Shown here piece by piece: positions 8,695 through 24,483 of a stretch of 32,000 nucleotides of DNA. The position numbers and the translations under genes were made by a program. This stretch comes from Pirellula staleyi DSM 6068. Its GTDB lineage: Bacteria; Planctomycetota; Planctomycetia; Pirellulales; Pirellulaceae. The stretch covers positions 4,770,001 to 4,802,000 of the forward strand of contig CP001848.1 of NCBI GenBank assembly GCA_000025185.1, in the 5' to 3' direction. Position 1 is the stretch's first letter. The number at the start of each line of letters is the position of its first letter. The notes below the pieces were generated by a model that had not been told where the DNA came from, made no database searches, and worked only from the letters and a program-made list of their open reading frames with translations.

Positions 8695-10503
8695 CTAGTC
8701 GAGTTGACGTTTCAGTGTGAAAGCACTGTAGTGCAACCCTGTTTCGTCACTCGTGGCCATGCCGCCACCGGGAGCGAGGTACTTGGAAATCGACGAGAAG
8801 GGAGGAATCGGATTCTCTTTCATGATTCCATCGACTCGCTTGAAGAATGGATTTTCGTTTTCCAGTCCACGATCGATGCGCGACTTCACAGCATCGCCGG
8901 TTGCCAGATCGTAGAGCATTCGCATCGATTCCTCGGGACGCGAAAACTGTAGCATTCCTGGTGCATTCCCACCATTTTGTCGCTTCACCTTGCTGGCGAT
9001 CAACTTGAAATCGGGCTGATCAGCGAGTCCTCTCGCAGGGTCAGTCGTGGCGAGTAGCGATGCTTCCAAAGCCTCGACGCTATCACAAATTAGCAAGTAA
9101 TCGCCCACGATTGCAAAGCAAGGGGTCGGTTGACGCGTGATGCGAGGACGCGGAGTGTCTCCCTCAGCTGGTGGCTGCTGGGGCGCTGGCCCTGGAATAA
9201 CGTGATAGGTGACACCTGCCATCGTTTTCTTTTCGAGGCGATCGGCAAACTTCTCGACGATCTTATTATGCACGTCCAAGAAGGAATTGGCGTCTTTCAA
9301 TTTCAATCCGACCATAATGCACTGACCATTAATGGTGGCTGGCTTTTGAATCCAGTTGGCAATAGAAATTCGACCATCCAGTGCTGGCACAATCTCTTTT
9401 TCAACATCGACACCGATACGATCGCTCAGACGAACCTTTACTTCGCGCTGGAACTCCCCCTCTTCCATGATGCTGTTATAAAGTTCTGCAGCAACCGAGT
9501 AGCTCTCTTGTACGTTCCAGTGGAGCGTGGTGTAGGCCGAAGACTCCGCGGGAACCCATGGCTCGGGCGTGGTGTCGCCAGCGCCGAAGGCGAGAACTTT
9601 CACGATCCCAGCGCGTGGCTCTTCGATCAGGATGTGGTAGTGAGCCACTTGGTCGAATTCACCCGTCGAGAAGGTGAGGCTGCCTCCCACACCTTTCACA
9701 CCATCGACGCCGAGCACAGGAAACAGGGCAACAGCTGTCTGTACGGCAAAGTTTCCACGGGCCGTAGCACGAACGATTTCGATCGGATCGACAAAGAAAG
9801 TGAATTGCGGTGGATCGTCGCTCGATCCGGCACAGCGGCTCATGATGGAGTTGAACTGATCGTTTTCAGCAAGTGATTTGATCTCGCTACCGTCCCACAG
9901 GTCCAGGACCTGCTCGGAGAGTGCTTCGCTCGTGGTGAAGACCAGCGTCCCTTCTTTTTCGAAGTAGACGATCTTGCCGCCGTCGGGACCTGTAACAAGC
10001 GTTGCCTCGACACCGGCGATTTTCACCGTTTCGACGTCGCCACCTTCTTGCTTAACAAACGTCTCACCATCCTCGAGCAGTTTGATCGCTGTGGGCAAAC
10101 GTTCCTTAACATCCATCAACATCACAACGCCGGTCGGCTGATCTCGAGCACTCACAAACCCCACGGCGATTTCACCTTGGGGAAGAACAATCAGGTCGTC
10201 GAGCGGCACGCTGATGCGGTCTTCGAGTGTGTTCCAGGCTTCCTGAATAGCAGCATAAGTGCTGGATACCAGGGGCTTTACATCTTCGTCGCCGGCAATT
10301 CGCCCCAGTGCAGTTTCCTTGAATCGCTCGCGCAGAAGCGGAGCATCGGTGATTCGGGCAAATGCTAAGGTATGCGTGGGCAACAACTTAGGAGCGCTCG
10401 GACGTTCCGCAAAAGCGGCCCCAGCGAGTGTCAAAGCGATGGCCAGGCTCGAACCAGCCCAGCGATAAGTGCGTCCCCAAAGGGAAAAGAGCCGACGTTG
10501 CAC
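8695..10503 (-). CDS. Large secreted hypothetical protein (602 aa)
   Basis: Long ORF with coding-like composition. GTG at 10503 is preceded by ggaga 7 nt upstream. This start gives a clean signal peptide, MQRRLFSLWGRTYRWAGSSLAIALTLAGAAFA/ERP. The track start at 10629 is TTG. No family confidently recognised. Confidence 0.65.
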   Translation of the reverse strand: MQRRLFSLWGRTYRWAGSSLAIALTLAGAAFAERPSAPKLLPTHTLAFARITDAPLLRERFKETALGRIAGDEDVKPLVSSTYAAIQEAWNTLEDRISVPLDDLIVLPQGEIAVGFVSARDQPTGVVMLMDVKERLPTAIKLLEDGETFVKQEGGDVETVKIAGVEATLVTGPDGGKIVYFEKEGTLVFTTSEALSEQVLDLWDGSEIKSLAENDQFNSIMSRCAGSSDDPPQFTFFVDPIEIVRATARGNFAVQTAVALFPVLGVDGVKGVGGSLTFSTGEFDQVAHYHILIEEPRAGIVKVLAFGAGDTTPEPWVPAESSAYTTLHWNVQESYSVAAELYNSIMEEGEFQREVKVRLSDRIGVDVEKEIVPALDGRISIANWIQKPATINGQCIMVGLKLKDANSFLDVHNKIVEKFADRLEKKTMAGVTYHVIPGPAPQQPPAEGDTPRPRITRQPTPCFAIVGDYLLICDSVEALEASLLATTDPARGLADQPDFKLIASKVKRQNGGNAPGMLQFSRPEESMRMLYDLATGDAVKSRIDRGLENENPFFKRVDGIMKENPIPPFSSISKYLAPGGGMATSDETGLHYSAFTLKRQLD

Positions 10504-10809
10504 AGAAAAGTCTCCGGTTGCGAAGAAAAACTCGCCAGAAGTGCGGTCGGCAGCAATACCCAGCGGAGGGATCGTGGGTTTCATCCAGATAGCGACAATC
10601 TGCCGAAGGTCCGCACCTGCGCGTAGCAAGTTTCATTGCTCCGGGCATGCTTGCACCCCTACAATCGGTAGTAGGTTGAACTTGGTCGCTTGGTTAGTCG
10701 GCAGTGGACGATGACAAACCAGCGCTTGCTCATCCGCTGAGAGAAGTTCTAAACCGAGCCACCCGCTCGATTTACTTGGTATACGCTCTGTTTGCTGGAA
10801 GGTCCGAAG

Positions 10810-11562
10810 ATGAAGAACACGCTGCTGATCGCCGCTTTGGCCACAGGTTTGCTCGCTTTGAGCGTGAGCGAGTCGCAGGCCCAGTATGGAGCGAGCGGAA
10901 CTTCGAGCAGCAGCAGCGGGCTGTTTGGCAGTCGCACGCAGGGAAGCGGCATCTCTTCCCGAAGTGGAGGGGGCACTAGCAGCGGTGGCACCGGGGGCCT
11001 GGGTGACGCTGGAGCCGTGCAAGGTGACGAGCGCTATGTCCGCGGCAATCGCGACGCTGGTTCGTTCGTTGGCTCCGACTCGGCCGATACAGCACCAGTC
11101 GGCGTCTCGCAATCGAGTGGCGGACGTGGTGCTGCTGGCGGTGGCATTCAAAGCCTGTTCGGTGGCAGCGGCGGTTTTGCCGACTTCGCTCGCCAAAATG
11201 GATTCAATCCCAATCAAGGGGGCGGCAATCAATCGCGCACCCAGCTCCGCATTCCAATTCGCCTCGGCTTCACACCCGAGCCCACCAACATGGCCGGGTT
11301 TCAAACAAAGTTCGAAACGCGGCTGACACGCATCCCAGCACTCAAGCGTCTGGGACCTATCGATGTCGAGATGCTCGGCAACACAGCTATCCTGCGGGGA
11401 GTAGTGGCATCTGCTGAAGATCGCCAACTGGCTGAAGATTTGGCGATGATGGAACCGGAAGTGGCTGACGTTGATAACGAGTTGATCGTGGGTCCGGTGG
11501 AGTCCAAGGGCGAGGAACTCCCTGTCCCAGCGCCGAGCGACGACCCACTGTTGAAGAACTAA
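10810..11562 (+). CDS. Secreted Gly/Ser-rich protein with C-terminal BON domain
   Basis: Signal peptide MKNTLLIAALATGLLALSVSESQA, followed by ~150 aa of G/S-rich low complexity. The BON-like C-terminus reads IDVEMLGNTAILRGVVASAEDRQLAEDLAMMEPEVADVDNELIV. Confidence 0.75.
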   Translation: MKNTLLIAALATGLLALSVSESQAQYGASGTSSSSSGLFGSRTQGSGISSRSGGGTSSGGTGGLGDAGAVQGDERYVRGNRDAGSFVGSDSADTAPVGVSQSSGGRGAAGGGIQSLFGGSGGFADFARQNGFNPNQGGGNQSRTQLRIPIRLGFTPEPTNMAGFQTKFETRLTRIPALKRLGPIDVEMLGNTAILRGVVASAEDRQLAEDLAMMEPEVADVDNELIVGPVESKGEELPVPAPSDDPLLKN

Positions 11563-12505
11563 GTGGCGAACGATTCTCCGTAGGCACTTGTGGAGTCATT
11601 TCGACTGCCACATTCGCACCGGTGGGTGGCATCACTTGCTGCTGCTGAAATGCCGGAGCTGTTGCCAACGTTTGCGTCCGGACTTGGCCGGTTGGCGCTA
11701 CAGCCATACGCTCGGCCAGCGAACTGGGGACATGAATCGAAGTCGCCCGCAAGCTCTTGGGTGGCGTGCTGGAAACAGTCGTGGGATTGGTCGTGCCCAG
11801 CAGTTGCTCGTGCACCGATCGCGAGTCCCCCGGCAATTCGTGCGTTACATTCACAGCCCCCATCATTTGCGTCGGAACTTGCTCTTCGTACGAGATCTGC
11901 TTCACCGACGAATCGCTGTAAACCTTGGGCAGATTTGTCAATTGTGGGGTAGGTGGTTCCGACTGTTTTTCCTCAGAACCTGGTAGCAGGTTACGCGACT
12001 GCTGAGCCATCACCACCTTGCCACTGGAAGCGGTGAAAACTGGCACAAGACTGATCTGCTTACGAATGCCACCCACTTCATCCCACGGCACCCACACACT
12101 GTAACTGGGGCCCAAATCGGTCGGAGCAAAGTGGCTGCTGAATGTCTCCTGAGGAAACGCATAGCGACGATCGGGCGCCTGACTTGCCTTCTGCTCGGAT
12201 TGCGAATCGTCGTAAGCGTTCACCACCAACTGACCTTCGACGGCAATCGGATTGTTCATCTTTCCGTAGAAGTAAATCCGCCCACCAAAACCACGTGTCG
12301 GCTTTTTACCTGGCTCGCTATACATCGCTGGGGACCAGATCACGACCATTCGCTCGGGCGATTCAAACTTGCTCTCGGTCACCTCAGGTTCGGATTTCCA
12401 AAGCTTGAAATCCTTCTTCCACAACTCAGCCGGAGAGACACATCCGGTCGCAGCTGTCGTCACGAGGATCGCCAGTACCATCGCAATTTGAAAGTTCGTT
12501 TTCAT
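11387..12505 (-). CDS. Lipoprotein with folded N-terminal domain and long P/Q/S/T-rich tail, last gene of the secretion cluster
   Basis: ATG at 12505 gives MKTNFQIAMVLAILVTTAATGC, with lipobox A-T-G-C. It starts 75 nt downstream of the secretin stop on the same strand. The C-terminal ~200 aa is low complexity. Confidence 0.7.
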   Translation of the reverse strand: MKTNFQIAMVLAILVTTAATGCVSPAELWKKDFKLWKSEPEVTESKFESPERMVVIWSPAMYSEPGKKPTRGFGGRIYFYGKMNNPIAVEGQLVVNAYDDSQSEQKASQAPDRRYAFPQETFSSHFAPTDLGPSYSVWVPWDEVGGIRKQISLVPVFTASSGKVVMAQQSRNLLPGSEEKQSEPPTPQLTNLPKVYSDSSVKQISYEEQVPTQMMGAVNVTHELPGDSRSVHEQLLGTTNPTTVSSTPPKSLRATSIHVPSSLAERMAVAPTGQVRTQTLATAPAFQQQQVMPPTGANVAVEMTPQVPTENRSPLSSSTVGRRSALGQGVPRPWTPPDPRSTRYQRQPLPVPSSPNLQPVGDLQQMPLLPAG

Positions 12506-12580: not shown

Positions 12581-15500
12581 TTATCGATACATGCCACTTA
12601 CTGGCTGATAGGTCTGCTGCGGAATCGCTGGCTGAGGCGAGTATGGCGGAGCAGCTTGCGGCTGATACATCGGCCCCTGAACAGGTCGCTGCGGTTGCTG
12701 CGGCGGCACTTGATAGGCACCTTGCTGCGGAACAAAAGCTGCAGGAGCCACCATGTTCGCGCTGGGTCCGCCCGGAGGTGCCGCAAAATTCGCGGGCATC
12801 ACTGGCCCTTGTTGCTGCGGCATGGGCTGCGGCATCATCGGTTGATATTGGGGTGGATACTGCGGTCCTTGATACGGCACGCCACCAGCGGGCTGCACAT
12901 ACTGTGGCCGATTCATCTGGGGAGGCTGCATGGAGTTGCGAGCATCGATGCTCACCGGAGCCACTGGCTGAATTTGCTGAGGACGCAACACACTTGGAGG
13001 TTGCATCCCATTGTTCGGCCCTGGCGGAGGCGAGTTCTGGCCCATGGAAGGTGTCGCAGGCGTTGGTGCTTGTGGATCATAGACACCCGGTGGTGTCAGC
13101 TGAGGTGCACTGGGGTTATTGTCGGGGAAGATCAGCGGCGAAGCTTCCGAAGCAGGAGCTTGCGGCCCCGATCCGAGCAGCACATCGCCATGGATGTTCA
13201 CCACGTCGGCCATGCACCAACTCATCCGTTCCGATTCACGCATGTTCATCCATTCGATGTCTTCGTCGTTCTGCATGATGAATGGGGTGAGAATGATCAG
13301 CAGTTCGCGACGTTCGTCCGACACCGAATCGAAGCGGAACAAGCGACCAAGCACCGGGATATCCCCAAGGTATGGAACGCGGCGAGTCGACTCTTGTTGG
13401 TTCTTGGTAATCAAACCACCGATGATCACCGTTTGACCACTGCGAGCACTCACAGTCGTTTGGGCGGTGGCAATGCGAATTTGTGGCGAACGAATCACGT
13501 CGCCGTTGCTGTTGATCGAGATCGGAATACCTTCCGCTTCGGGACCAAGCTCCGACTTCTCCGCATCGATTTCCATCACGATCATTCCGTCGGGAGCCGT
13601 GCGTGGTGTCACGCCGAGGATAATACCGACGTTTTCTAGCACCGTATTGTTGATCGTGCCGTTGACGGTGAGTTGCGACGACGTGATGCGCGGCACGCGA
13701 GCACCGACTTGCACGAATGCAGGTTGGTTGTCGAGCGTTTGCACTTGCGGCCGGCTGATCACTTGCAGACGGCGCGACTGCTGGAGAGCTCGCACCAGCA
13801 CACTCACACTTTCGCTACTGGCCGAGAGGACAAGGCCGCCGTAACCGAGAGTTGGATCGGTGCGGCCAACCCCGAACGACGACAAACCTTGACCAGCGAC
13901 ACTTTCGCGAGTCGCCAGCGAGGTGGCATCGCTGTTGTTGCCGAGTGCAACGTTGTTGAACGGGAAACCGACGCTGCCGATACCACGATCGAACAGCAGC
14001 GAGTCTTGAATACCAAGCTCCACGCCGAGCTGCTCGACATCCGACAGCAGCACTTCAGCGATCATCACTTGGATGATCACCATCGGTGGCCGACGATCGA
14101 GATCTTCCACCACCTTCTTAATCTCGTCGAAGTAGCGTGGAGTCGCACTCACGATCAGGCTGTTGCTCACGATTTCAGGAACCACGATCACTTCACGCTC
14201 GAACTGTTCGAACTGCGTCGTGAGTTCGGCATTCTGCTGGCTCAAGTCGCGCTGATTCGTCAGCAGTTCGTTAATCGCTGTTGCCACATCCGCTGCTGGC
14301 GAGTTTCGCAGGCGATAGACCGTTGTCACTCGCTGACGAATATCTCCCTCATCGAGGCGCACCAAAATCTGATACACCACGTTGAGATCGCCCGTCGTGC
14401 CCGATGCCACGATGCTATTGGTACGCGTGTCGACCGAGAAACGGAGGGGAACCAGCGAACTATCTCCAGCACCGGTTGCCGTTTGCAGTCCGAACTGGCC
14501 TTGGTTCTGACCACCACCCTGTTGTTGCTGTCCGAAGAGGTTCTGCAAGGTCTCCGCCAGCGCGGTAGCGTCGCCATTTTCGATCGTGAAGACCTTGATT
14601 TGAGCTTCCGTGGCTGGCAAGGCATCCATCTGCTCAATCAGAGCCTGCATCAGCGGCATGCTTTGCGTTGGACCGGTGACGACAATCGAATTGCCACGTG
14701 GGTCGGCCGTGATTCGCATGTCGGACAAGATGCCCGACTCGAGTACACCGCGACCTTCACTATCGACTCGTAGTAGCTGCAGGTTGGTTGAGCGACGGGT
14801 GGCCGTGGCTGGCGTTTGTGCCCCTTGACCACTTTGCCCCTGTTGTTGCTGCTGTTGCCCTTGTTGCTGGCCAGCCCCTTGAATCTGACCGGTCACCGCT
14901 TCTTGCAGCACAGGGGCGAGCTCTTCAGCAACGGCATTCTTCAGCTTGAATATGCGCACTTCATTGGCACTCTCCGACGCTGCCACATCGAGCGTATCGA
15001 GCAGTTTTTGAACCTCGAGCAGATCCCGCTGGCTGGCCTGCACGATGAGACTGTTGGTGCGATACTCGGCGATCGTCAGGACGCGAGTCCCCAGGCCAGT
15101 CCGTGGATCGGTACCAAAACCGGGGCGATCGACAAAAAAGTTCCGGACCGTTCGTTCAGCATCAATCGACGACATGAACTTCAGTCGAAACACCTTCAGC
15201 TGCGATTCGGGCGAAACGGTTTGATCGAGTTTTTGGAGCAGTTCGACCACTGGTGGAATCGCTTCAGCGCGGCCGATGAGCATCAGAGCATTCGGCTTCA
15301 CCAAGGGAGTGATCGTGACTCGGCTCTGACGCGCCGAGAAGACCTGATCATAAATCGTGGCGACCAGGTCCGACAAAGCGCGACCGTCGACGTTCTTGAG
15401 CGTATAGATTTCGACAACCGGTTTGGTCTCTTCGCTCTGACGTTCGATTTCGTCGATGATTTTCAGAACACGTTCGACATCGGCCTTCTTACCACGCACC

Positions 15501-16525
15501 ACCATCACGTCGAGCCCTTCGAGGAACTCGATTTGCACGTCGCCAATTCGGCCGAGGCCGTCGTCGGCTGCAGCACCTTCTTCAGGAGCAGCTTCGCCGC
15601 CTGGAACGGCAGGGGGTGGAACAGCAGGACCTTCTGCCGGTGGAGCAGCGGGTGGTGCGGCACCACCATCGGCACCGGGCTGAAAGATCATGGTCATGAA
15701 TTCGCCGATGTGCTCGCGCTTACCTTCGGCTGTCGTCGGCATTCCTGCCGCTTTGATCAGCGAAATGGCGCGAGCTACGGTCATGGGGTCCGCTTTTTCG
15801 AGTGGCACAACAGCCGCCTGATCCCGCACGAGATCGCGTGGCCAATCAAGCACGCCAAGCAGTTTTTCCCAAGCGCGCCCTTGTCCCTTCGGAGCACTCA
15901 CCTGTACTTCACCCGCACGGCGATCGACTTTCAATCGAACTGGGGGGAGTTTTGGCGAGCGAAGTTCATATTCCGAGCTGTTGGTCGAGCTAGCCGTCGT
16001 GACCACGCGACGGGCTCCCAAACGTGTCAGAAGTTGTTCGAAGTCGCTGGCACCGGTGTTCCTGAGGCGATACGAAACCAGTTCCCCCATCGAACTGTCG
16101 ACGCTCTCTTGCGGCAGGGGGGTGATGCGCGTGGTCAGACCGTTCTCGCTGGCCTGCTGCTGTGTCAGGCGAATCGTCGCAGGAAGATCGGCTACCCAGC
16201 GTTCCACTTGTTTGTGGACATCGGTTGGAGCGACCAGCACGATTTGACGGGTGCGAGGATCGGCAGCGACACGGACGTCGGAACGCGAACGATAGTCGGC
16301 CTGCAGCTGATCGAGCGCCCATTGCAGATCGGCGCTGCCCACCGAATAGCCCTTCACCTGCACATCGGCAGGCTTGGACTGAGCCACAGGGGCCGCGGGT
16401 GTTGGCATCGGCACTTGAGCCGTCGCAGTCTGCCAGCATGCCAGAGCGGAAAGCATACCAACGGCAGCTACGCGCAGGCGAGAGTTGCGTTTCCAAGGAC
16501 TAGCGATGAGTCGCAGTGCGTTCAT
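12581..16525 (-). CDS. gspD: Secretin (GspD/PilQ family), 1314 aa, expanded
   Basis: Signal peptide from ATG 16525: MNALRLIASPWKRNSRLRVAAVGMLSALACWQTATAQ. At least five Secretin_N-type modules are visible (VEIYTLKNVDG.., LKVFRLKFMSS.., VRIFKLKNAVA.., IKVFTIENGDA.., TTVYRLRNSPA..). The secretin core reads LQVISRPQVQTLDNQPAFVQVG ... VPYLGDIPVLGRLFR ... ELLIILTPFIM. Confidence 0.92.
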   Translation of the reverse strand: MNALRLIASPWKRNSRLRVAAVGMLSALACWQTATAQVPMPTPAAPVAQSKPADVQVKGYSVGSADLQWALDQLQADYRSRSDVRVAADPRTRQIVLVAPTDVHKQVERWVADLPATIRLTQQQASENGLTTRITPLPQESVDSSMGELVSYRLRNTGASDFEQLLTRLGARRVVTTASSTNSSEYELRSPKLPPVRLKVDRRAGEVQVSAPKGQGRAWEKLLGVLDWPRDLVRDQAAVVPLEKADPMTVARAISLIKAAGMPTTAEGKREHIGEFMTMIFQPGADGGAAPPAAPPAEGPAVPPPAVPGGEAAPEEGAAADDGLGRIGDVQIEFLEGLDVMVVRGKKADVERVLKIIDEIERQSEETKPVVEIYTLKNVDGRALSDLVATIYDQVFSARQSRVTITPLVKPNALMLIGRAEAIPPVVELLQKLDQTVSPESQLKVFRLKFMSSIDAERTVRNFFVDRPGFGTDPRTGLGTRVLTIAEYRTNSLIVQASQRDLLEVQKLLDTLDVAASESANEVRIFKLKNAVAEELAPVLQEAVTGQIQGAGQQQGQQQQQQGQSGQGAQTPATATRRSTNLQLLRVDSEGRGVLESGILSDMRITADPRGNSIVVTGPTQSMPLMQALIEQMDALPATEAQIKVFTIENGDATALAETLQNLFGQQQQGGGQNQGQFGLQTATGAGDSSLVPLRFSVDTRTNSIVASGTTGDLNVVYQILVRLDEGDIRQRVTTVYRLRNSPAADVATAINELLTNQRDLSQQNAELTTQFEQFEREVIVVPEIVSNSLIVSATPRYFDEIKKVVEDLDRRPPMVIIQVMIAEVLLSDVEQLGVELGIQDSLLFDRGIGSVGFPFNNVALGNNSDATSLATRESVAGQGLSSFGVGRTDPTLGYGGLVLSASSESVSVLVRALQQSRRLQVISRPQVQTLDNQPAFVQVGARVPRITSSQLTVNGTINNTVLENVGIILGVTPRTAPDGMIVMEIDAEKSELGPEAEGIPISINSNGDVIRSPQIRIATAQTTVSARSGQTVIIGGLITKNQQESTRRVPYLGDIPVLGRLFRFDSVSDERRELLIILTPFIMQNDEDIEWMNMRESERMSWCMADVVNIHGDVLLGSGPQAPASEASPLIFPDNNPSAPQLTPPGVYDPQAPTPATPSMGQNSPPPGPNNGMQPPSVLRPQQIQPVAPVSIDARNSMQPPQMNRPQYVQPAGGVPYQGPQYPPQYQPMMPQPMPQQQGPVMPANFAAPPGGPSANMVAPAAFVPQQGAYQVPPQQPQRPVQGPMYQPQAAPPYSPQPAIPQQTYQPVSGMYR
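12584..13168 (-). repeat. Low-complexity coding region: ~195-aa Pro/Gln-rich C-terminal tail of the secretin
   Basis: The translation is dominated by P and Q with recurring Y/M/G/A, e.g. PQYPPQYQPMMPQPMPQQQGPVMP and QVPPQQPQRPVQGPMYQPQAAPPYSPQPAIPQQTYQP. Confidence 0.85.
14818..14880 (-). repeat. Poly-Gln/Gly linker coding stretch inside the secretin (GAGQQQGQQQQQQGQSGQGAQ)
   Basis: Mixed CAA/CAG/GGN codon run seen directly. A second Q/G-rich linker (FGQQQQGGGQNQGQFG) lies near 14491-14536. Confidence 0.85.
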
Positions 16526-16665
16526 AACAAAGCTTTCCGAGTAGCAGACTTCGGCGCGCAGCAATCGAGGGGACCGCGCGTTAAGGTCGTCGTACACGGA
16601 ATAATCGGCAAAGTTTGCCAAAGAGATAAGCGGATGTGGCAACTTTGCTAGAAGATTCGACTCGT

Positions 16666-16779: not shown

Positions 16780-17979
16780 CTACGGCAGCAGCTGAGCTTG
16801 CTCGAGAACATCGCCTTTGCCCAGTCGATGTGGCTTTCCCTCGCTCACAAAAACGAAGTCACTTTCGCCTATCGACTCGACCACCCCCTTCACGCTGCCA
16901 ACCTGGAACGTCTGTCCTTCGGTCAAGCGGAGGGTCTGATTGGTAGGTCGAACATGCAGCCAAACTTCCCCTTGGCCCGAAATGCTTAGCACGGCTGTGA
17001 GTACCGTGAACTTGGCATGATCAAAGGCCAGACGGGCAGTTGGAGGAGGAGTTGGCGGAACATACGGAGGAGGTGGTGGAGGATCGGTCACCGTCACTTT
17101 CATCTTCGACTTCACGGTGGCGACAGGGGCTCCATCATCGCTGGCGGCGATTTCAAATTCGTAGGTGCCGACCTTCGCCGGACGGAACGTGAATTTACCA
17201 GTAGCGGGGTCGATCTTCGCTCCTTCAACTGAAGCCGATGCCAGGGCATAGCTCACTTTGTCGAGCGGATCGGGATCCGCAGCTTTAGCAGTCACCTCGA
17301 CAGAACGACCGATCGCAACGCGCTGATCGGAAACCCCCGAGAGCTTGGGAGGATTGTTCGCTGGTCCAAACAAATTGCGGCCAACGATGGACGAGCGATA
17401 CTCGTCGAGCGACGACAGCATCATCCGATCGCCTGGATTGGTAGAGATCGACGAACTATCGGGGCCGCCAACCAAGGAAATCGCTTCCACCGTCATCTGA
17501 ATCGACAGATTCTTCGAATCCTTCACCGGGCGGATCGTCAGTTTGCTGACACGGTGGAGCAAGTCGACTTCATAAATCGAGTAGAGCAGTTGTACCAGCT
17601 GATCAATCGAACCTTTGCCAGCAATGGTGAAAGTGTGGAGCTCGCCAATATCATCGAGCGGGCGCCGAGTCACAAAAGCGACGTCTTGATCGGTCAGTTT
17701 TGCCTTTTGGACGAGCTGAAAGAGCCAATTCTTGTAGCCCACTTCTGCTTCCGAAGAGTTGCGAGGCAGCGAGCGAGCTGCTAGTTCTTCGAGACGTAGC
17801 TCGGCTTGACGACCTTGCAATACTTCACGCTTTTGGGCGCTGATTTGCGATTCCAGCTCATCGATCCGCTTGCGTTTCGAAGCAAAGCTGGCATCGATCG
17901 ACGTGTAGAAGTAATAGCCTACGATCAGTACGAGCATGCTGCCGACACCGATCGCGAGGAGACGTTCGTTCTGTTTCAC
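16780..17979 (-). CDS. GspM/PilO-like inner-membrane protein fused to an Ig-like domain, poly-Pro linker and PilP/GspC-HR-like C-terminal domain
   Basis: N-terminal TM LLAIGVGSMLVLIVGYYFY, then a coiled coil (RIDELESQISAQKREVLQGRQAELRLEEL). A PilO-like core spans aa ~75-170. The Ig/cadherin-like segment (aa ~210-299) reads AKAADPDPLDKVSYAL..IDPATGKFTFRP..GTYEFEIAASDDG, followed by DPPPPPPYVPPTPPP. The C-terminal ~85-aa beta-rich domain is GEVWLHVRPTNQTLRLTEGQTFQVGSVKGVVESIGESDFVFV. The GTG start overlaps the upstream stop (GTGA at 17976-17979). Confidence 0.7.
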   Translation of the reverse strand: MKQNERLLAIGVGSMLVLIVGYYFYTSIDASFASKRKRIDELESQISAQKREVLQGRQAELRLEELAARSLPRNSSEAEVGYKNWLFQLVQKAKLTDQDVAFVTRRPLDDIGELHTFTIAGKGSIDQLVQLLYSIYEVDLLHRVSKLTIRPVKDSKNLSIQMTVEAISLVGGPDSSSISTNPGDRMMLSSLDEYRSSIVGRNLFGPANNPPKLSGVSDQRVAIGRSVEVTAKAADPDPLDKVSYALASASVEGAKIDPATGKFTFRPAKVGTYEFEIAASDDGAPVATVKSKMKVTVTDPPPPPPYVPPTPPPTARLAFDHAKFTVLTAVLSISGQGEVWLHVRPTNQTLRLTEGQTFQVGSVKGVVESIGESDFVFVSEGKPHRLGKGDVLEQAQLLP

Positions 17980-19565
17980 TGAACACCTCCCTTAGCTGCA
18001 GCGGCTGGCTTGGCTGGGGCTGATACTGGTGTGCTGGCAGCAGGCTGCGACTTCTCTTGCTTCTCGGCTTTCGCCTTTTCCTCGGCAGCACGTTCGGCTG
18101 CGATCGCTTCCATTTGCTCGGGGAAGATCTTGAAATCCTCCTTAAACCGCCACTTTAAATCGGGCGATTCAGCGTCGTATTTGGCTCCACTTCCCGAAAC
18201 GTTGTAGCCGTGGCTGCGAGCCTGCACTTCCATCCGATTGATCACGCCCGTTTCGCTCGCGAGTCCTTGCACGATCAGCTGACCACCACCGGGACGTTCG
18301 CCAACCGGCTGAATCGATGTCGCGACCAACTCTTCTACGCGGGCCTCTTTGGAAGATGGCATCTTGCGTGAGAGTGCATCAAGAGCATCGAGCCAAGTGA
18401 TGTCTCCCACTTCAAATTTTTCGAGCTGCGCGACATCCTCGCGAGGCTTCTTAAGCTTAATGGCGTCGTCTTTGGTGCGCCGCAGTTCGTTGCTAAGCGA
18501 GCTGATCTTGGTGTCGAGGTTTCCCAGTTCCCAGTACAAAAACATTGCGAACGACGCGACCAGCGAAAGGATCGCCGCTGCGGCCAGCACATAGACTCGC
18601 CGCTTATTGGGTGGAATCGGCCGCTTGCGAGGCGAAAGGAAGTCGATTGTTTCGGCGGTCTGCGAGCATTCTCCTTCTAGCATGCCTAGCAGCGGCGCGA
18701 ATGTTCCCGGAAACTCGGGCATGCTCTTGAGCTCACTCGTCACTTCGACGAGCGAGAAAGGATCGAGAAGCTGAACTTCCAGCGAGAGCTCTTTTTCCAG
18801 TGTCCCCTTCACCGCAGCGTGGTGGAGACCATCGCCAAAAATGATCACTTCATCGACCCGACGACCACCGAGCTGATTTTGCGCGGCAATCATCGTGCGG
18901 CGAATTTCACCGACGAGCGACTTCGACTGGATCGCGGGATCGAGCGAGGCTGGGAGTCGCACGGTGCGTGGGAAAATCACCTGTGGACCGATGAGCACCG
19001 ACAGATCGGCGTCGCTCGGCAAGAGGTCGATGAGCATCCGGCAACGCTCGTCGGCATGACGCTTGGCCAGCAAGTTGGCAGCAGCGACTGGACGGAGCGC
19101 GACACGCTTGAGCGACAGTTGTGCCGCCTGACAAACCGATTGCGTTTGTTTCAGAATTTCGGGGGAGATGGCTGCGGCGAGCACATTGGTGCCACCATCG
19201 GTCCCTTTACCGAGTTCGATATAGTCGAGCGGCCAGTCGTCTCCCAGCGTGGTGAACTGACGCAGCGCTTGAAAGCGCACCAGATCGGCAAGTTCTTCGG
19301 GGGGAGCAGGGGGAGTCGAGAGGAACCGGAGTTCGATACTGGACCGGCCCACGGCGACCAGCGTTTCGCTGCGCGCGAGCCCTTCTTTTTGCACGAGCTC
19401 GCTGAGCTTCGTCGCCACTTCCGAATCGGAGACAGTGGTCGCTCCATCGGCGGGAAGCAAGCTGATCGTCCATGCACGATCGATCGCCACTCCGCGCGCT
19501 CGCTTTCGGCCAGCCAGCACACGCAGCTCTTTGGCATCCCATTCAATCGCAACTAGTCGAGACAT
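17976..19565 (-). CDS. GspL-like assembly protein: cytoplasmic PilM/actin-like domain + TM + PilN-like periplasmic domain
   Basis: The N-terminal ~320 aa resembles PilM/GspL-cyto (LVAIEWDAKELRVLAG.., DLLPSDADLSVLIG.., IIFGDG). A single TM (VYVLAAAAILSLVASFAMFLYW) sits at aa ~324-345. It is followed by a coiled coil and a small alpha/beta domain, ending in an Ala/Lys/Glu-rich tail. Confidence 0.75.
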   Translation of the reverse strand: MSRLVAIEWDAKELRVLAGRKRARGVAIDRAWTISLLPADGATTVSDSEVATKLSELVQKEGLARSETLVAVGRSSIELRFLSTPPAPPEELADLVRFQALRQFTTLGDDWPLDYIELGKGTDGGTNVLAAAISPEILKQTQSVCQAAQLSLKRVALRPVAAANLLAKRHADERCRMLIDLLPSDADLSVLIGPQVIFPRTVRLPASLDPAIQSKSLVGEIRRTMIAAQNQLGGRRVDEVIIFGDGLHHAAVKGTLEKELSLEVQLLDPFSLVEVTSELKSMPEFPGTFAPLLGMLEGECSQTAETIDFLSPRKRPIPPNKRRVYVLAAAAILSLVASFAMFLYWELGNLDTKISSLSNELRRTKDDAIKLKKPREDVAQLEKFEVGDITWLDALDALSRKMPSSKEARVEELVATSIQPVGERPGGGQLIVQGLASETGVINRMEVQARSHGYNVSGSGAKYDAESPDLKWRFKEDFKIFPEQMEAIAAERAAEEKAKAEKQEKSQPAASTPVSAPAKPAAAAKGGVQ

Positions 19566-19733: not shown

Positions 19734-21305
19734 CTATTGCTCGGTGTAATCGACCCCCAGGGTCTCGAGGGCGAACCCACGTCCCAGGTGGCTGATATCT
19801 CTCCAGAATACTAAGCGGGGGGCGGCAGTTGTAGCATCGAAAATCGCTTCGGCCCGACTTGCTGCCGATCCGCCCTGGAAATATCCCACCACCTGCGCCC
19901 GAAACACCTGTCCGCCACCACAAATGAAGGGTTGCAGCAGTTTCATCTCGTCGAGGGTCACCACCCCTTCGGCAAGCAGCCAGGTTTCATATTGCCGCCC
20001 CGGCTGGTCGGTTCCGGGATCAGCCGAACGCCGCGTGATGATTTGATTGACGATATCCTCGTCCATCCCCGGAATACCCCGCAGAATCGTTGCAGATGCT
20101 TGATTCACGTTAATCCGTCCCGGAATGGTGGTCGCCGGGTTGATCGTGGCCCCATCCATCAGCTGCGGGAGAAAAATGTTCATCGCGCCGATCTCGGCGG
20201 GAATCGGCGAATTGAGAACAACCGATGAGATCTCGCCCGAAAACCGAACGCGTGTTTTTGCTCCCACGAGATCGAGCAATTGCGACAAAGGGAAGCGGGC
20301 GGGGCGCGTCATGTCGAGCGTCCCTTGCGCGCCACTGGTGGCCTCTTGCGAGCCGGTGTAGGGACCATTCTGCCGGTAAGCGACGATGAAGGTCGCCCAT
20401 TCCGCAGGGAACTTTTCCGAGAGGCTGGTGTAGAGCGTGTTGAGGTCGTCGTTGTTGAGATAGATGCGGGGCGAACCATCGGCCGAGAGATTGCTTTCCA
20501 TGCTGTAGAGTGTCAGGTACGACGCCCAGCCACTTCCGGAATAGCTTCCGTCGTCAGCCACTCCTTGCGACGAGTTAGCACTTTCACCCTCTGCTTCGTG
20601 CGGATCGATTGTGCCGTTGCGATTCACATCAGCGCCAAACAGCAGTGCCGGAGTGACGCCGCGCACCAGTAGTAGTTCCTCGACCGTTTCCAGGGGGCCG
20701 TTCTTGCAAGCATAGGCCGGAGAAAGTCCGCTGTAGTAATCGATCTCGGCACCCAAATCACGCGCCTCGTCGTCTTCGTCAATCCAGTCGAGGATCGCAT
20801 CGGCAACATCTTCGGTCATCCCTGGCAAGGCCATGAGGAGGTTCTTCCCCGAGCCTTCCGACTGCGCTTCGAGTGCCAGCAGAGTGTTGAGATTCAGCCG
20901 CGTCGATTCATCCTCGAGTCCGTAGCGAAGGCCACCGTAGTTGCCAGAAGAATCGAGCGACGGTGCGACGACAGCAAAACTGCCGCGAAAATTTGGATCG
21001 GGATCGTCGATGACCGTGCGACCTTTGAACAGGGTCGGGTTATCGTAGATCCCTCCTTGTTCAAGACGAATATCGGGTGTGCTGAAGAGAAACAGCTTCA
21101 CACTATCAAGCCCCGAGTCGACGAGCGCCCGTGTTTGCGTTTGGCGAATCGAAAGCTCAGCCGACTCTTGATGGGCGAGCATCAGATCGCTGAAGGCATA
21201 GCTGCCGAGTGCCAAAAAGGCCACCACCACCAGCACCATGATCAGCACCATGGCCGATCGTTGCTTGGGGATCTTTCGACTAACCTGCGCGCGAGTGCCG
21301 GTCAT
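19734..21305 (-). CDS. gspK: Minor pseudopilin GspK-like (523 aa)
   Basis: The hydrophobic N-terminus lacks Glu+5 (SAMVLIMVLVVVAFLALGSYAF). GspK-typical blocks are RLNLNTLL, LPGMTEDVADAILDWIDEDDEARDLGAEIDYY and GRINVNQASATILRGIPGMDEDIVNQIITRR. The ATG overlaps the upstream stop (ATGA at 21302-21305). Confidence 0.85.
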   Translation of the reverse strand: MTGTRAQVSRKIPKQRSAMVLIMVLVVVAFLALGSYAFSDLMLAHQESAELSIRQTQTRALVDSGLDSVKLFLFSTPDIRLEQGGIYDNPTLFKGRTVIDDPDPNFRGSFAVVAPSLDSSGNYGGLRYGLEDESTRLNLNTLLALEAQSEGSGKNLLMALPGMTEDVADAILDWIDEDDEARDLGAEIDYYSGLSPAYACKNGPLETVEELLLVRGVTPALLFGADVNRNGTIDPHEAEGESANSSQGVADDGSYSGSGWASYLTLYSMESNLSADGSPRIYLNNDDLNTLYTSLSEKFPAEWATFIVAYRQNGPYTGSQEATSGAQGTLDMTRPARFPLSQLLDLVGAKTRVRFSGEISSVVLNSPIPAEIGAMNIFLPQLMDGATINPATTIPGRINVNQASATILRGIPGMDEDIVNQIITRRSADPGTDQPGRQYETWLLAEGVVTLDEMKLLQPFICGGGQVFRAQVVGYFQGGSAASRAEAIFDATTAAPRLVFWRDISHLGRGFALETLGVDYTEQ

Positions 21306-22462
21306 GGCGAGGCTCCCGAGGAAGCTGCCGCATCGGCGCTGCCAGAATTTGCGGCCGCTTCTTCTTCCGCCGCAGCGGTTGCTTCGCGCGTGGCAGCGGG
21401 AATGGCATGCGGCAAGTGCACGACCATGCGAAATTGACGCGTCGCATTGGCTGCGGCAATCAGCGATGGATTCTCTGAGTCTTCAGCCGTTTCTGGATCG
21501 ACACCGACGGTCGTCAGGACCAGTACAATTTCGACAGCCACTGGCAAGCCACCGGCAGAATCGCTATTCCATTCGGTCAGCCACTGCGAGCCATCAAAGT
21601 ACTGCACCTGCATCGACACCACTTCTTCGGCGAGCAACTTCGCGTCACTTGTCGAGACAGAGAGATCGCCGTTCATCTCGGCCCAAGTAGTGACCGCCCG
21701 ATCGAGTTCACGCCGCATGAGTCCACGCCCTTGCCCGGTGCTGCTCGGCTCGGCCTGAGAGGCACCACCCAGTGCGCTACTTGAAAGGCTGGCAGATTCC
21801 TCGCTCCGAACAAAATAAGTCACCGTCTTCACATCGCTCGGAATATCAACCACCCCCAAGTTGCTCGCGCTGTCGATGAGCGTTTGATACTGATCGACTC
21901 GTGGAAGCTTGCTCACATCGACTGAGAACTCGGTCGATGTTCCGTAGAGTCCGACAACAGGCAATGCCAGACCGGTATCTTCCGCTTCAGGATCGGTAGC
22001 GGCAGGGACCGCTTGCGGCGTAGCGCCACTCGCAGCATCTCCGGCCGAGTCACCCGAATCATCACTCCCGGTTCCTGTTCCGCCGCTGGTATTTGATCCC
22101 GAGTCGGCACCATCACCTGTGCCACTGTTGCTCGCTGAATTGGAAGCATTGGTCGCCGCTGTTTGTCCATTGGCTGCCACGAGCGCGAGCCCCGAAAGAT
22201 CGGGAGGGGAGTATTGCACGGCACTCTTCAGGTCGTCGGCCATGTGACGCAGCAGCGCGCGAGCGAGCTGCGCATCTTCCACATTGGTGCGCCGGGCGTC
22301 GAACATGCGAAAGTAGACATCAATCGCCATTCCGACCGCCGACAGCACCAGTACCGACAGTGCGAGCGCGAGAATGAGTTCGAGCAGCGTCATGGCGCGG
22401 CGAATGTTGCGCGAGCGATGGTGGCGGCTAAAGCAAAGGTGATTGTGCGAACTAAGAGCCAC
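21302..22462 (-). CDS. Minor pseudopilin (GspJ position) with prepilin-type N-terminal domain and G/S/T/D-rich insert
   Basis: Prepilin motif RRA/MTLLELILALALSVLVLSAV, with Glu at +5. The low-complexity insert reads NASNSASNSGTGDGADSGSNTSGGTGTGSDDSGDSAGD. The start is uncertain. GTG 22462 gives a 23-aa leader and an 11-nt overlap with the upstream gene. ATG 22393 would give no leader. The track start at 22657 lies inside the upstream gene. Confidence 0.7.
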   Translation of the reverse strand: MALSSHNHLCFSRHHRSRNIRRAMTLLELILALALSVLVLSAVGMAIDVYFRMFDARRTNVEDAQLARALLRHMADDLKSAVQYSPPDLSGLALVAANGQTAATNASNSASNSGTGDGADSGSNTSGGTGTGSDDSGDSAGDAASGATPQAVPAATDPEAEDTGLALPVVGLYGTSTEFSVDVSKLPRVDQYQTLIDSASNLGVVDIPSDVKTVTYFVRSEESASLSSSALGGASQAEPSSTGQGRGLMRRELDRAVTTWAEMNGDLSVSTSDAKLLAEEVVSMQVQYFDGSQWLTEWNSDSAGGLPVAVEIVLVLTTVGVDPETAEDSENPSLIAAANATRQFRMVVHLPHAIPAATREATAAAEEEAAANSGSADAAASSGASP

Positions 22463-23090
22463 GGCGACCTCCGCCGCCCGGAGGCGTTGAGAAATCGGGG
22501 ACCTGAGGAAGCGATGGTGTTCCGCCCCCGCCAGTATTGTTTCCGCCAGCACCGTTGCCGGTTCCACCTCCAGAACTGTTTCCTCCACCAGTGCCACCTG
22601 TTCCGCCTGTACCACTGTCACCCGTGTCGTCAGTGCCATCGCTTCCTGCCGAGGCACTTTGGCCCGACTGCGAAGCCGCGAGTGCAGCAGCTTCTTCCGC
22701 TGCGGCTTCAGCCGACTCTTGCACTGTGGGGTCGATCATCCAGCGCGACAGTGCAAACCTCACCGGTCGTCCAGCAGCGTCGGCACTTTGCTCGACTGTC
22801 ACCGTTACGGCGAGCAATCCCTCCTGCTCAGCCGCTGCAACTTCGACGCTGTAGAGCCATTCCCCCGAATCATCTATCGGCGAGGCGCTCACCGCTTCCG
22901 AGGGTTCGATGCCACTCGTTACTTCCGCCATCTTGGTTTCACACAAGATCTCGGCGGTGGTCAGATCACGTGCCCGTGCAGCTGATCGCGAACCGAGCCG
23001 AAGCAGCTCCCCCAGGACAGCCAGTGATCCACCGAGGATTGCAATCGCCAGCATCACCTCCAGCAGCGAGAGTGCTCGGCGGCTGTTCAT
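22452..23090 (-). CDS. Minor pseudopilin (GspI position) with ~80-aa Gly-rich C-terminal tail
   Basis: ATG 23090 gives MNSRRA/LSLLEVMLAIAILGGSLAVLG, a short basic leader with Glu at +5. The C-terminal tail reads GSDGTDDTGDSGTGGTGGTGGGNSSGGGTGNGAGGNNTGGGG..PPGGGGRRGS. An alternative ATG at 23186 would give a 38-aa His-rich leader. Confidence 0.75.
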   Translation of the reverse strand: MNSRRALSLLEVMLAIAILGGSLAVLGELLRLGSRSAARARDLTTAEILCETKMAEVTSGIEPSEAVSASPIDDSGEWLYSVEVAAAEQEGLLAVTVTVEQSADAAGRPVRFALSRWMIDPTVQESAEAAAEEAAALAASQSGQSASAGSDGTDDTGDSGTGGTGGTGGGNSSGGGTGNGAGGNNTGGGGTPSLPQVPDFSTPPGGGGRRGS

Positions 23091-23258
23091 AACCCAACGA
23101 GTGCGGCGCTTTGTTGCGTGGCTTGCCACGCGATTAGCGTGCCGATGGTGGTGGAAGATGAGTGGCATGATGACAACTGACTGCATTCGCTGCTTTAGAA
23201 TTCAATGTTCGATAAAATATTCTCGGCGATGTTATCCCCAGCGTTTTCTAGGGAAGAG

Positions 23259-23945
23259 CTACGGCATCAAATTCTCGACTTCACCGATATCGCTCACCAT
23301 GCTCGAACCGGTTAAGCCACGCAGCGATACTCGCATTCCCACGTTGCGTTCACCGGTCAGGATCACAAACGCATCGCTCGAACTCCCATCGGGATAGAAC
23401 AAAATCGGACGCGACCAATCGCTACGTCCAAATCCCGAAGTCTCCGCTTCCACAAGAGCCGAGCGGCCTTCGAGCACGGCATCGCCCCCTGCAAAAATAA
23501 CGCCATCGGGAAGAAGCGCGCCCCCAGCAGGAACCTCGGGCGAACTTTGTGCGGCGCCGCTGGTTAAAAACTGCGACTGAGCCATCTCTGCCTGGTTGCT
23601 TTCGATCGACTCATCGCCACTTGCCCAGGGAAGCACCTGATAACCGGAGCCCCCGAGTTGGTAGCGGAACATTTGAATCTGTCCCGAGCGCATCGCGCGG
23701 ACATGGGCGCGGGTAAACTCCGCGCGAACCTTGTCGGCCCCAGTACGGAGACGCTGATCCTTGAGAGCATTCAGCAGCGCCGGAGAAGCGATGGCGGCGA
23801 CTACAATCAAGATTGCCATCACCAGCAGGATTTCAACGAGCGTGAAACCAGTCCGCAACCCAGAGCTTCTCGGTTTTCGTACGCTCCTCGCGCGACGAAG
23901 CTGCGCCGCTTGCAGGAAAATCGCACTCCAACCGAGAAAGCACAT
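23259..23945 (-). CDS. Minor pseudopilin (GspH position), prepilin-type N-terminal methylation domain
   Basis: Motif LRTG/FTLVEILLVMAILIVVAAIASPALL, followed by a GspH-like segment (LRTGADKVRAEFTRAHVRAMRSGQ). ATG 23945 gives a 32-aa leader. An in-frame TTG four codons before the cleavage site is an alternative start. Confidence 0.75.
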   Translation of the reverse strand: MCFLGWSAIFLQAAQLRRARSVRKPRSSGLRTGFTLVEILLVMAILIVVAAIASPALLNALKDQRLRTGADKVRAEFTRAHVRAMRSGQIQMFRYQLGGSGYQVLPWASGDESIESNQAEMAQSQFLTSGAAQSSPEVPAGGALLPDGVIFAGGDAVLEGRSALVEAETSGFGRSDWSRPILFYPDGSSSDAFVILTGERNVGMRVSLRGLTGSSMVSDIGEVENLMP

Positions 23946-23978: not shown

Positions 23979-24407
23979 TTACGGATCGAGCATTACATCG
24001 TCGTCGGAACCACTATTGCCATCGGGACCACTCGACCAAATGCGATAGGTGTTGGCCGTCAGCTGTTCGTAGTTGTAAGGGTTGCTCCAAGGATCGAGAG
24101 GAATCTCTTTCTCGAGATAAGGCCCCGCCCATTTCGCAGGGTTCTTCAGGTCAGCAGGAGCATTCTTGAGCGCTTCAAAACCTTGCTGCGTTGTCGGAGC
24201 AGTGCCGATGTTTAGCGTGTAGGCATCGATTGCCGTCGAAAGGGCCTTGATTTGGTTCTTGGCACCATCGCGATTTGCGTTCTGCTGAATCCGAACGAAC
24301 GACACCGTTACGAGCGATCCCAGAATCACCAGGATGGCCATCACGAGGAGCACTTCCATCAGTGTAAAGCCAGCACGTTTACGACGGCGGTTCAAACGGT
24401 TGTACAT
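23979..24407 (-). CDS. gspG: Major pseudopilin GspG
   Basis: MYNRLNRRRKRAG/FTLMEVLLVMAILVILGSL, then GspG-typical blocks NQIKALSTAIDAYTL, WAGPYLEKEIPLDPWSNPYNY and SSGPDGNSGSDDD. ATG 24407 is preceded by aagga 8 nt upstream. The track start at 24461 adds 18 residues. Confidence 0.9.
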   Translation of the reverse strand: MYNRLNRRRKRAGFTLMEVLLVMAILVILGSLVTVSFVRIQQNANRDGAKNQIKALSTAIDAYTLNIGTAPTTQQGFEALKNAPADLKNPAKWAGPYLEKEIPLDPWSNPYNYEQLTANTYRIWSSGPDGNSGSDDDVMLDP

Positions 24408-24483
24408 CGATACGATCCTTCTGTTGAGAGTAACTGAATGTTGTGTTTTGTTGTGCTTCACTAGCGAAACATGACAGGGACGA

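Follow-up and report, generated by a model that had tools for sequence, protein, structure and literature searches.

Pirellula staleyi DSM 6068 carries, within a type II secretion system (T2SS) cluster, a gene for a 399-amino-acid protein that joins a GspM-like membrane module to a domain resembling GspC's homology region (HR). We analyzed this fusion gene (positions 16780 to 17979, minus strand) in a stretch of 32,000 nucleotides, here called the window (GenBank accession no. CP001848.1, positions 4,770,001 to 4,802,000). The evidence suggests that the protein is the GspM equivalent of a T2SS of Pirellulales and now fills the place of GspC in docking to the secretin, a reading to which we assign a probability of about 0.7. 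Such an architecture, with GspM and GspC-HR in one polypeptide, is a variant of a known machine and not a new kind of system.

The fusion gene is a real, conserved gene and not a chance reading frame, because it has many homologue clusters, because its relatives share the same domain order, and because its synteny is conserved. At least 158 clusters of full-length homologues (37 to 70% identity) were found, and all named ones belong to the Pirellulaceae or Planctomycetales. The databases call them “Ig domain-containing,” “cadherin repeat,” or “hypothetical” proteins and, occasionally, “PilO” or “PilN.” An alignment of 57 family sequences displays four conserved blocks with a Pro-rich segment of variable length between them. 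AAGGGAGG stands before the GTG start codon, which shares 4 nucleotides (GTGA) with the end of the upstream GspL-like gene and its TGA stop codon; this overlap suggests translational coupling of the two genes.

Domain anatomy of the fusion protein

The original prediction, made from the sequence of the window, divided the protein into a PilO/GspM-like N-terminal part, an Ig-like domain, a Pro-rich rod, and a C-terminal PilP/GspC-HR-like domain. The predicted structure and the alignments bear out this four-part layout, and the borders first proposed (approximately residues 210 to 299, 300 to 314, and 315 to 399) are refined to residues 208 to 298, 299 to 314, and 315 to 399. The AlphaFold2 (AF2) model of the full protein, built with the 57-sequence alignment, has a mean predicted local distance difference test score (pLDDT) of 88.5, while its predicted TM-score is only 0.56, so that the interdomain geometry is uncertain.

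The N-terminal part looks like GspM or PilO in its fold, its gene position, and its family matches. In the model, a single long helix (residues 3 to 69) encloses a transmembrane segment at about residues 7 to 25, where the Kyte-Doolittle hydropathy reaches its maximum (mean, 1.97), so that the protein has the single N-terminal transmembrane helix of GspM and PilO. The periplasmic coiled coil is followed, as in those proteins, by a ferredoxin-like domain in which an alpha-beta-beta unit occurs twice (helices 75 to 93 and 125 to 137; strands 96 to 108, 112 to 123, 142 to 151, and 158 to 169; pLDDT about 90 or higher). The NCBIfam model GspM_XpsM (NF040576) matches residues 6 to 152 of the window protein (E = 7.7e-4; model positions 1 to 153 of 180) and, weakly, 37 of the 57 family members (best E = 4.9e-9). 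Pfam T2SSM matches 13 members, all below threshold, PilO matches 3, and T2SSM_b matches 1. Furthermore, the fusion gene directly follows the GspL-like gene in the window and in four other loci (L002, L003, L032, and L033), as is expected of gspM or pilO. Because fold, operon position, and consistent weak matches come together, the assignment of this part as a divergent GspM is supported, in agreement with the original prediction. What sets the protein apart from GspM and PilO is the presence of about 230 extra C-terminal residues, which comprise a helix, the Ig domain, the linker, and the HR-like domain.

The short helix after the ferredoxin-like domain is conserved. In the Ig-containing family, its motif “Y..I..RNLF” has invariant or near-invariant Y194, I198, R201, N202, and F204. 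Y194, I198, and R201 are also invariant in an eight-sequence alignment that includes relatives without the Ig domain, most of which also keep N-L-F. This helix may be a contact site for the GspL-like partner or a hinge.

The C-terminal domain has seven strands at residues 325 to 387 in the full model and, when modeled alone, again seven strands with a pLDDT of 94.6; the chain ends 9 to 12 residues past the last strand. We used this domain alone (86 residues) as query in a Foldseek search of the PDB and considered the top 50 matches. Only three had TM-scores above 0.5: GspC-HR of enterotoxigenic Escherichia coli (3oss_C; query/target TM-score, 0.62/0.80; probability, 1.00), PilP of Pseudomonas aeruginosa (2y4y_B; 0.59/0.66; probability, 0.98), and PilP of Neisseria meningitidis (2ivw; 0.61/0.47; probability, 0.96). 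The query-normalized TM-scores of all others were 0.43 or lower. Above a TM-score of 0.5, GspC-HR and PilP were the only matches, and the seven-strand beta-sandwich core of PilP is present in the model.

Profile-profile comparison points in the same direction. For it, HR segments of the E. coli type served as seeds of an exhaustive profile search, from which a diverse alignment of 27 GspC-HR sequences was built. When hhalign compared a 35-sequence alignment of the planctomycete domain with it, P was 4.5e-4 and the strands of the two coincided in register. With a query widened to 108 sequences of less than 70% identity, Ig-less relatives included, hhalign gave a probability of 72.4%, P = 3.3e-5, and a score of 28.6 over 81 columns, while the reversed template scored 8.9 and the best of twenty block-shuffled templates scored 16.5. 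This check, which had been set beforehand, thus came out positive: the match keeps a single register throughout the domain and scores above all controls. Against a narrow alignment of 7 E. coli-type GspC sequences, hhalign gave nothing but a mis-registered result; the comparison became informative once both sides had been diversified.

A curated family model provides the third line of evidence. GspC_delta (NF041515) was mapped in P0117, one of the four family members that it matches, where it covers residues 298 to 382 (the linker and the C-terminal domain; E = 2.8e-4), while GspM_XpsM covers residues 6 to 148 of the same protein. Because the structural, profile-profile, and curated-model lines agree, with none passing a curated family threshold, the assignment of the C-terminal domain to the HR/PilP type is supported, and the resemblance first noticed in the last 85 or so residues holds up under all three.

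Two features of GspC and PilP are missing. No PDZ domain was matched in the fusion protein, and neither a PDZ domain nor a coiled coil follows the HR-like domain. A lipobox is also absent, the C-terminal domain being internal to a transmembrane-anchored protein, so that the lipoprotein character of PilP is not shared.

The secretion cluster and the secretin-docking question

The minus-strand neighbors of the fusion gene constitute a T2SS cluster with the order gspE-F-G-H-I-J-K-L-fusion-D, which Anatilimnocola aggregata ETAA8 and metagenomic contigs share. Among the open reading frames (ORFs) of the window, Pfam and NCBIfam models revealed no match to GspC or PilP, and a hidden Markov model (HMM) specific for the C-terminal domain of this family found the fusion protein alone. 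The absence of a second HR protein from the window rests mainly on this family-specific HMM, because an HMM of GspC-HR misses even the fusion protein. Within these 32 kb, the claim that no separate gspC or pilP gene accompanies the cluster is therefore upheld.

Given the PilM-like upstream gene, one may ask whether the cluster instead builds a type IV pilus (T4P), with the protein being a PilO-PilP fusion, as in Pseudomonas putida, that serves pilus alignment. PilO-PilP fusions are documented in T4P systems (PMC3169554), the upstream gene product matches PilM models (TIGR01175, 3.2e-9; Amuc_1101 family, 7e-17), GspE scores 593 bits on PilB versus 616 bits on GspE (both below the cut-offs), and some database entries call the homologues PilO or PilN. 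However, with 117 bits the major pilin exceeds the equivalog cut-off for GspG (88.85 bits), GspK (T2SSK_1st, 2e-17; NF037980, 5e-22) and minor pseudopilins of the GspH, GspI, and GspJ types are present, and gspD is the best-scoring model for the secretin (350 bits, versus 182 for PilQ). Moreover, no PilT-type retraction ATPase was found among the window ORFs scanned, and the N-terminal part of the fusion matches GspM in 37 of 57 members but PilO in only 3. We consider the pilus explanation quite unlikely. Independently of this question, the GspL-like protein and the secretin weakly match the PilM-like Amuc_1101 family (Amuc_1101_fam) and the Amuc_1098 family of Akkermansia, respectively, which hints at a relationship between pilus and secretion clusters of the Planctomycetes-Verrucomicrobia-Chlamydiae superphylum.

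If the fusion protein is indeed a GspM that has acquired the docking domain of GspC, it would work as follows. The transmembrane helix, coiled coil, and ferredoxin-like domain anchor the protein in the inner membrane, where the N-terminal module would pair with the GspL-like protein through the periplasmic part of the latter, by analogy to the GspL-GspM and PilN-PilO pairs. The chain then runs on through the short helix, the Ig spacer, and the Pro-rich linker to the C-terminal HR/PilP beta-sandwich, which may bind the giant secretin of the neighboring gene at its periplasmic base, as GspC-HR binds the N0 domain of GspD and PilP binds PilQ. In this way, the inner membrane platform would be coupled to the outer membrane pore through one chain, and having the jobs of GspM and GspC in a single polypeptide would fix their ratio at 1:1. 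Standard values, not measurements, underlie our estimate of the reach: about 6 nm for some 40 periplasmic helical residues, about 3 nm for the ferredoxin-like domain, about 4 nm for the Ig domain, about 4.5 nm for a 15-residue polyproline II helix, and about 3 nm for the HR domain, or a maximal total of about 20 nm. Such a reach could be the counterpart to a secretin that has at least six N-modules.

Several results weigh against this reading, at both ends of the protein and in its presumed partner. The GspM_XpsM score of the window protein is 19.2 bits, below the curated threshold of 60, and the N-terminal profile found no GspM or PilO in the PDB sequence set. At the C terminus, GspC_delta matches only 4 of the 57 members, weakly (best, 20.7 bits versus a cut-off of 150); Pfam T2SSC matches a single member (E = 0.015), as does T2SSB, weakly; and the window protein itself matches neither Pfam T2SSC nor NCBIfam GspC. 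The GspC-HR HMM mentioned above had no match to any window ORF, the target domain included, and profile and phmmer searches of the PDB sequence set with the full protein and the C-terminal alignment retrieved no GspC, PilP, GspM, or PilO. As for the partner, phmmer against the PDB, Pfam searches up to an E value of 10, and a PDB search with a first-module profile detected no N0 domain in the secretin, whose first module matches the N2/N3-type Secretin_N of GspD instead of N0. The contact with the secretin is therefore putative and is proposed by analogy to GspC and PilP.

The weakness of the C-terminal matches might mean that the domain is a generic small beta-barrel (similar to SH3, Tudor, OB, cupin, or MscS-beta domains) that has nothing to do with GspC-HR or PilP. 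The protein would then be an extended GspM, with the barrel serving substrate capture or the binding of peptidoglycan or the envelope. This would agree with the Foldseek E values, which are all above 0.1 (as expected for so small a query) and come with FABP, KOW, Tudor, and clathrin-propeller fragments among the matches; with weak Pfam matches to MS_channel_2nd (6 of 35 members), Cupin, Tudor, and RuvA_N; and with the profile search of PDB sequences, which yields only repeat-propeller artifacts. Yet the query-normalized TM-scores of these alternatives do not exceed 0.43, versus 0.59 to 0.62 for GspC-HR and PilP (up to 0.80 when target normalized; probability of at least 0.96), the hhalign match to GspC-HR is positive over the whole domain and exceeds the shuffled controls, a curated GspC model matches this very region, and the setting is a T2SS cluster without gspC. 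A generic barrel is thus unlikely in our judgment. The “Pizza” propeller matches in the PDB were rejected as sums of six sub-threshold repeats; E. coli GspC gives similar “Cake” matches.

A different explanation accepts the HR-like domain but stops it short of the secretin: it would fold back on the periplasmic domains of GspL and GspM or bind a lipoprotein encoded downstream, which would be the real connector. The undetectable N0 speaks for this, as do the near absence of a linker between the GspM-like and HR-like domains in some Ig-less relatives and a conserved lipoprotein gene that follows the secretin gene in three loci. That lipoprotein could be another connector, which counts as a further point against docking by the fusion protein. 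On the other hand, the domains of the HR/PilP fold characterized so far (GspC, PilP, OutB/GspB, and, by proposal, Thermus PilW) bind or are proposed to bind secretin N-terminal domains, and the Ig-less lineage keeps the fusion even though its secretin and lipoprotein genes are not adjacent. We regard this explanation as very unlikely, and a GspM equivalent that docks on the secretin remains our preferred reading.

A stronger version of this reading can be put forward only tentatively, and we hold it to be somewhat improbable as a whole: the T2SSs of Pirellulales dropped GspC altogether, the GspM-HR protein is the sole link between platform and secretin and docks on an N0-less secretin, and the spacers act as a ruler matched to the width of the periplasm and the number of N-modules. 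If true, docking on a secretin without a canonical N0 would constitute a new interface.

The features of the fusion gene and the cluster are listed in Table 1.

Table 1. Features of the fusion gene and of the surrounding T2SS cluster (window positions)
Feature	Positions	Strand	Basis
Whole fusion gene	16780-17979	minus	ORF, ribosome-binding site, GTGA overlap, homologue clusters
Residues 1-69: short cytoplasmic N terminus, transmembrane helix (about 7-25), periplasmic coiled-coil helix	17773-17979	minus	AF2, hydropathy, GspM_XpsM match
Residues 75-169: ferredoxin-like domain (alpha-beta-beta, twice), GspM/PilO type	17473-17757	minus	AF2; GspM_XpsM, T2SSM, and PilO matches
Residues 170-207: loop and conserved short helix	17359-17472	minus	AF2 helix 191-201, alignment columns
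Residues 208-298: Ig-like domain, He_PIG/cadherin type, lineage-specific insertion	17086-17358	minus	Pfam, Foldseek, alignment
Residues 299-314: Pro-rich linker DPPPPPPYVPPTPPPT	17038-17085	minus	Sequence, low pLDDT
Residues 315-399: seven-strand beta domain, GspC-HR/PilP fold	16783-17037	minus	AF2, Foldseek, hhalign, GspC_delta
GspE	25818-27539	minus	Pfam/NCBIfam
GspF	24484-25686	minus	Pfam/NCBIfam
GspG	23979-24461	minus	TIGR01710, above cut-off
GspH-like (228-aa ORF)	23259-23945	minus	Pfam/NCBIfam
GspI-like (244-aa ORF)	22452-23186	minus	Pfam/NCBIfam
GspJ-like (451-aa ORF)	21302-22657	minus	Pfam/NCBIfam
GspK (523-aa ORF)	19734-21305	minus	T2SSK_1st, NF037980
GspL-like: PilM-like cytoplasmic domain, transmembrane segment, PilN-like periplasmic part	17976-19565	minus	TIGR01175 (pilM); PilM_2, weak
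Giant secretin (about 1,315 aa from MNALRL)	12581-16525 (ORF 12581-16642, 1,353 aa)	minus	Secretin, 6.5e-42

The ORFs of the minor pseudopilins (GspH-, GspI-, and GspJ-like and GspK) are much larger than the E. coli proteins of locus L001. About 200 nucleotides are common to the GspJ-like and GspI-like ORFs, and the prepilin motif of the former is at residues 84 to 108, so that the true start of the GspJ-like gene probably lies further downstream. The secretin has Secretin_N matches (1.7e-57) in six stretches, i.e., at least six modules, and scores 350.1 bits on the gspD model TIGR02517, whose cut-off is 351.35. Three further Secretin_N stretches exist in its first 357 residues, Gln/Gly-rich inserts separate the modules, and a Pro/Gln-rich C-terminal tail of about 200 residues follows the secretin domain.

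Directly downstream of the secretin gene lies the gene for the conserved lipoprotein (11387 to 12505, minus strand; probable start, MKTNFQ; signal peptide with the lipobox A-T-G-C). It has a conserved domain of about 140 residues (RGFGGRIYFY...EGQ...SYSVW..WD.VGG...SRN.LPG) and then a Pro/Gln-rich tail, and it showed no Pfam match even at an E value of 10. Its orthologues in Anatilimnocola aggregata (L002, 15556 to 16770) and in a metagenome-assembled genome (L003, 15248 to 16495) are encoded at the equivalent place. The protein is a candidate pilotin or secretin-associated factor. A plus-strand ORF at 10792 to 11562 encodes a signal peptide, Gly/Ser-rich sequence, and, at the C terminus, a BON domain (E = 2.5e-6); it is probably the real gene here. 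The 264-residue ORF that overlaps it on the minus strand (10633 to 11427) matches no family and seems to be spurious. A BON domain gene also follows the lipoprotein gene in Anatilimnocola (L002, 16496 to 16939). Also downstream of the cluster, positions 8695 to 10629 (minus strand) encode a 644-residue DUF3352 protein, and a DUF3352 gene likewise follows the secretin-lipoprotein pair in L003 (17248 to 19044). At the other end, just upstream of gspE, a periplasmic protein with an LTXXQ motif (Spy/CpxP-like) is encoded at 27807 to 28754 (minus strand). An LTXXQ gene at the same position in the Ig-less cluster L032 (1 to 743) suggests that it may be a conserved neighbor of these T2SS operons.

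Optional spacers and distribution

Two of the four parts are optional. Compared with a sister family that lacks it, the Ig domain (about residues 208 to 298) is a clean insertion in the alignment, and the Pro-rich linker is likewise absent in some of the Ig-less relatives. Because relatives without these parts keep the GspM-like and HR-like domains, the latter form the conserved core, and the Ig domain and linker are optional spacers. The spacers would adjust the reach of the protein across a wide periplasm.

The Ig domain consists of beta strands at residues 212 to 298 in the AF2 model. Pfam He_PIG matches residues 216 to 296 of the window protein at E = 0.0024 (18.7 bits versus a cut-off of 24), and Big_9 and Cadherin also stay below their cut-offs in it. 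Across the family, He_PIG matches 39 of the 57 members (best E = 2.9e-8), and a Foldseek search with the full model retrieved mostly EC domains of cadherins and protocadherins (E about 1e-6); both agree with the proposed cadherin/He_PIG type of the domain. The names “cadherin repeat protein” and “adhesin” were nevertheless rejected as descriptions of function, since the protein belongs to the platform and its Ig domain is an optional insertion. Invariant acidic positions of the domain (D235, D237, and D240 in “DPDxLD” and D281-D282 in “DDG”) recall cadherin-like Ca2+-binding motifs, and the spacer may thus be rigidified by calcium.

The linker that follows reads DPPPPPPYVPPTPPP at residues 299 to 313 (nucleotides 17041 to 17085), as had been claimed. 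It is Pro-rich across the family and variable in length. Its pLDDT is 56 to 65, and residues 300 to 320 form the low-confidence stretch of the model. Some homologues are extended further: P0041 (648 residues) and P0106 (651 residues) continue for about 250 residues past the HR-like domain with a Pro/Glu/Ala-rich region and then an apparent globular domain, and many Anatilimnocola-type members have acidic low-complexity tails of 50 to 100 residues.

The original prediction had called for a survey of the fusion, and it proved to be widespread. In a scan of one genome per species, the C-terminal domain was found in 27 loci, all of them from planctomycetes of the Pirellulales type, such as Rubripirellula obstinata, Stieleria tagensis, and Rhodopirellula europaea. 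Twelve of 13 translated ORFs, those of the three species just named among them, have the same four-part architecture, and this domain order is also present in Anatilimnocola. The thirteenth ORF (locus L020) lacks the Ig domain. A search with it identified at least 165 further clusters of proteins of 295 to 350 residues from Thermoguttaceae and “Planctomycetia,” none with an Ig domain, which stand beside the 158 or more Ig-containing clusters of Pirellulales. The Ig-less proteins are encoded at the end of the same E-F-G-H-I-J-K-L operon, with no adjacent secretin gene (L032 and L033).

Related systems and implications

The fusion is anticipated in principle by PilO-PilP fusions and by PilW of Thermus. 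Korotkov et al. described PilO-PilP fusions in a few T4P systems, e.g., Q88CU9 of Pseudomonas putida, and used them in 2011 to argue for a 1:1 ratio of GspM and GspC (PMC3169554). Like the planctomycete protein, these fusions place a PilO/GspM-type transmembrane and ferredoxin-like module before a PilP/HR-type sandwich and imply a 1:1 ratio. They differ in that they belong to T4P clusters, whereas the present one belongs to a T2SS cluster of the GspG/GspK type; in that the planctomycete protein has, in addition, the Ig domain and the Pro-rich linker; and in that they represent a few cases, whereas the planctomycete fusion is fixed across an order (at least 158 plus at least 165 clusters). PilW of Thermus thermophilus is a transmembrane protein in which a long, extended Gly/Pro-rich stretch leads to an HR-like domain at the C terminus; it is proposed to bridge a 70-nm periplasm to the secretin (PMC13039148). 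It resembles the fusion protein in its membrane anchor, its Gly/Pro-rich stretch, its C-terminal HR-like domain, and its gene position between pilO and pilQ (PMC13039148), but it is separate from a stand-alone PilO, belongs to a T4P system, and has no ferredoxin-like or Ig domain.

With GspC, the fusion protein shares the HR fold (3OSS chain C), a remote profile similarity, and a presumed role as the link between platform and secretin. In contrast to GspC, no PDZ domain or coiled coil comes after its HR domain, its anchor is a GspM-type module instead of the transmembrane segment of GspC, the T2SSC and GspC cut-offs are not passed, and the partner N0 is not detectable in the secretin. PilP (2Y4Y and 2IVW) has the same seven-strand beta-sandwich but, as a lipoprotein, carries a signal peptide of its own, and its N-terminal region, which is disordered, binds PilN and PilO, whereas the HR-like domain here is covalently joined to the PilO/GspM homologue. 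With GspM and PilO themselves, the protein has in common the transmembrane helix, the coiled coil, the twofold alpha-beta-beta ferredoxin-like domain, and the gene position right after gspL. Our literature search, which was incomplete in its coverage, found no description of a planctomycetal T2SS fusion or of a GspM-GspC fusion. Thus, the part of the novelty that stands is an order-wide, T2SS-type GspM-HR fusion with optional spacers, whereas the principle has been known since the PilO-PilP fusions of 2011.

A T2SS was reported to be up-regulated during fucoidan degradation by marine Planctomycetota (PMC11685898). The fusion explains the apparent absence of gspC in the T2SS clusters described here. 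Since gspC is mandatory in the T2SS model of MacSyFinder/TXSScan (PMC6668835) and since database records give the protein other names, planctomycetal T2SSs are likely under-called. The spacer series (none, Pro-rich linker, or Ig domain plus linker) lends itself to the study of adaptation to periplasm width, in parallel to PilW. Finally, the fusion represents natural, order-wide evidence that the functions of GspM and GspC-HR act in a 1:1 ratio.

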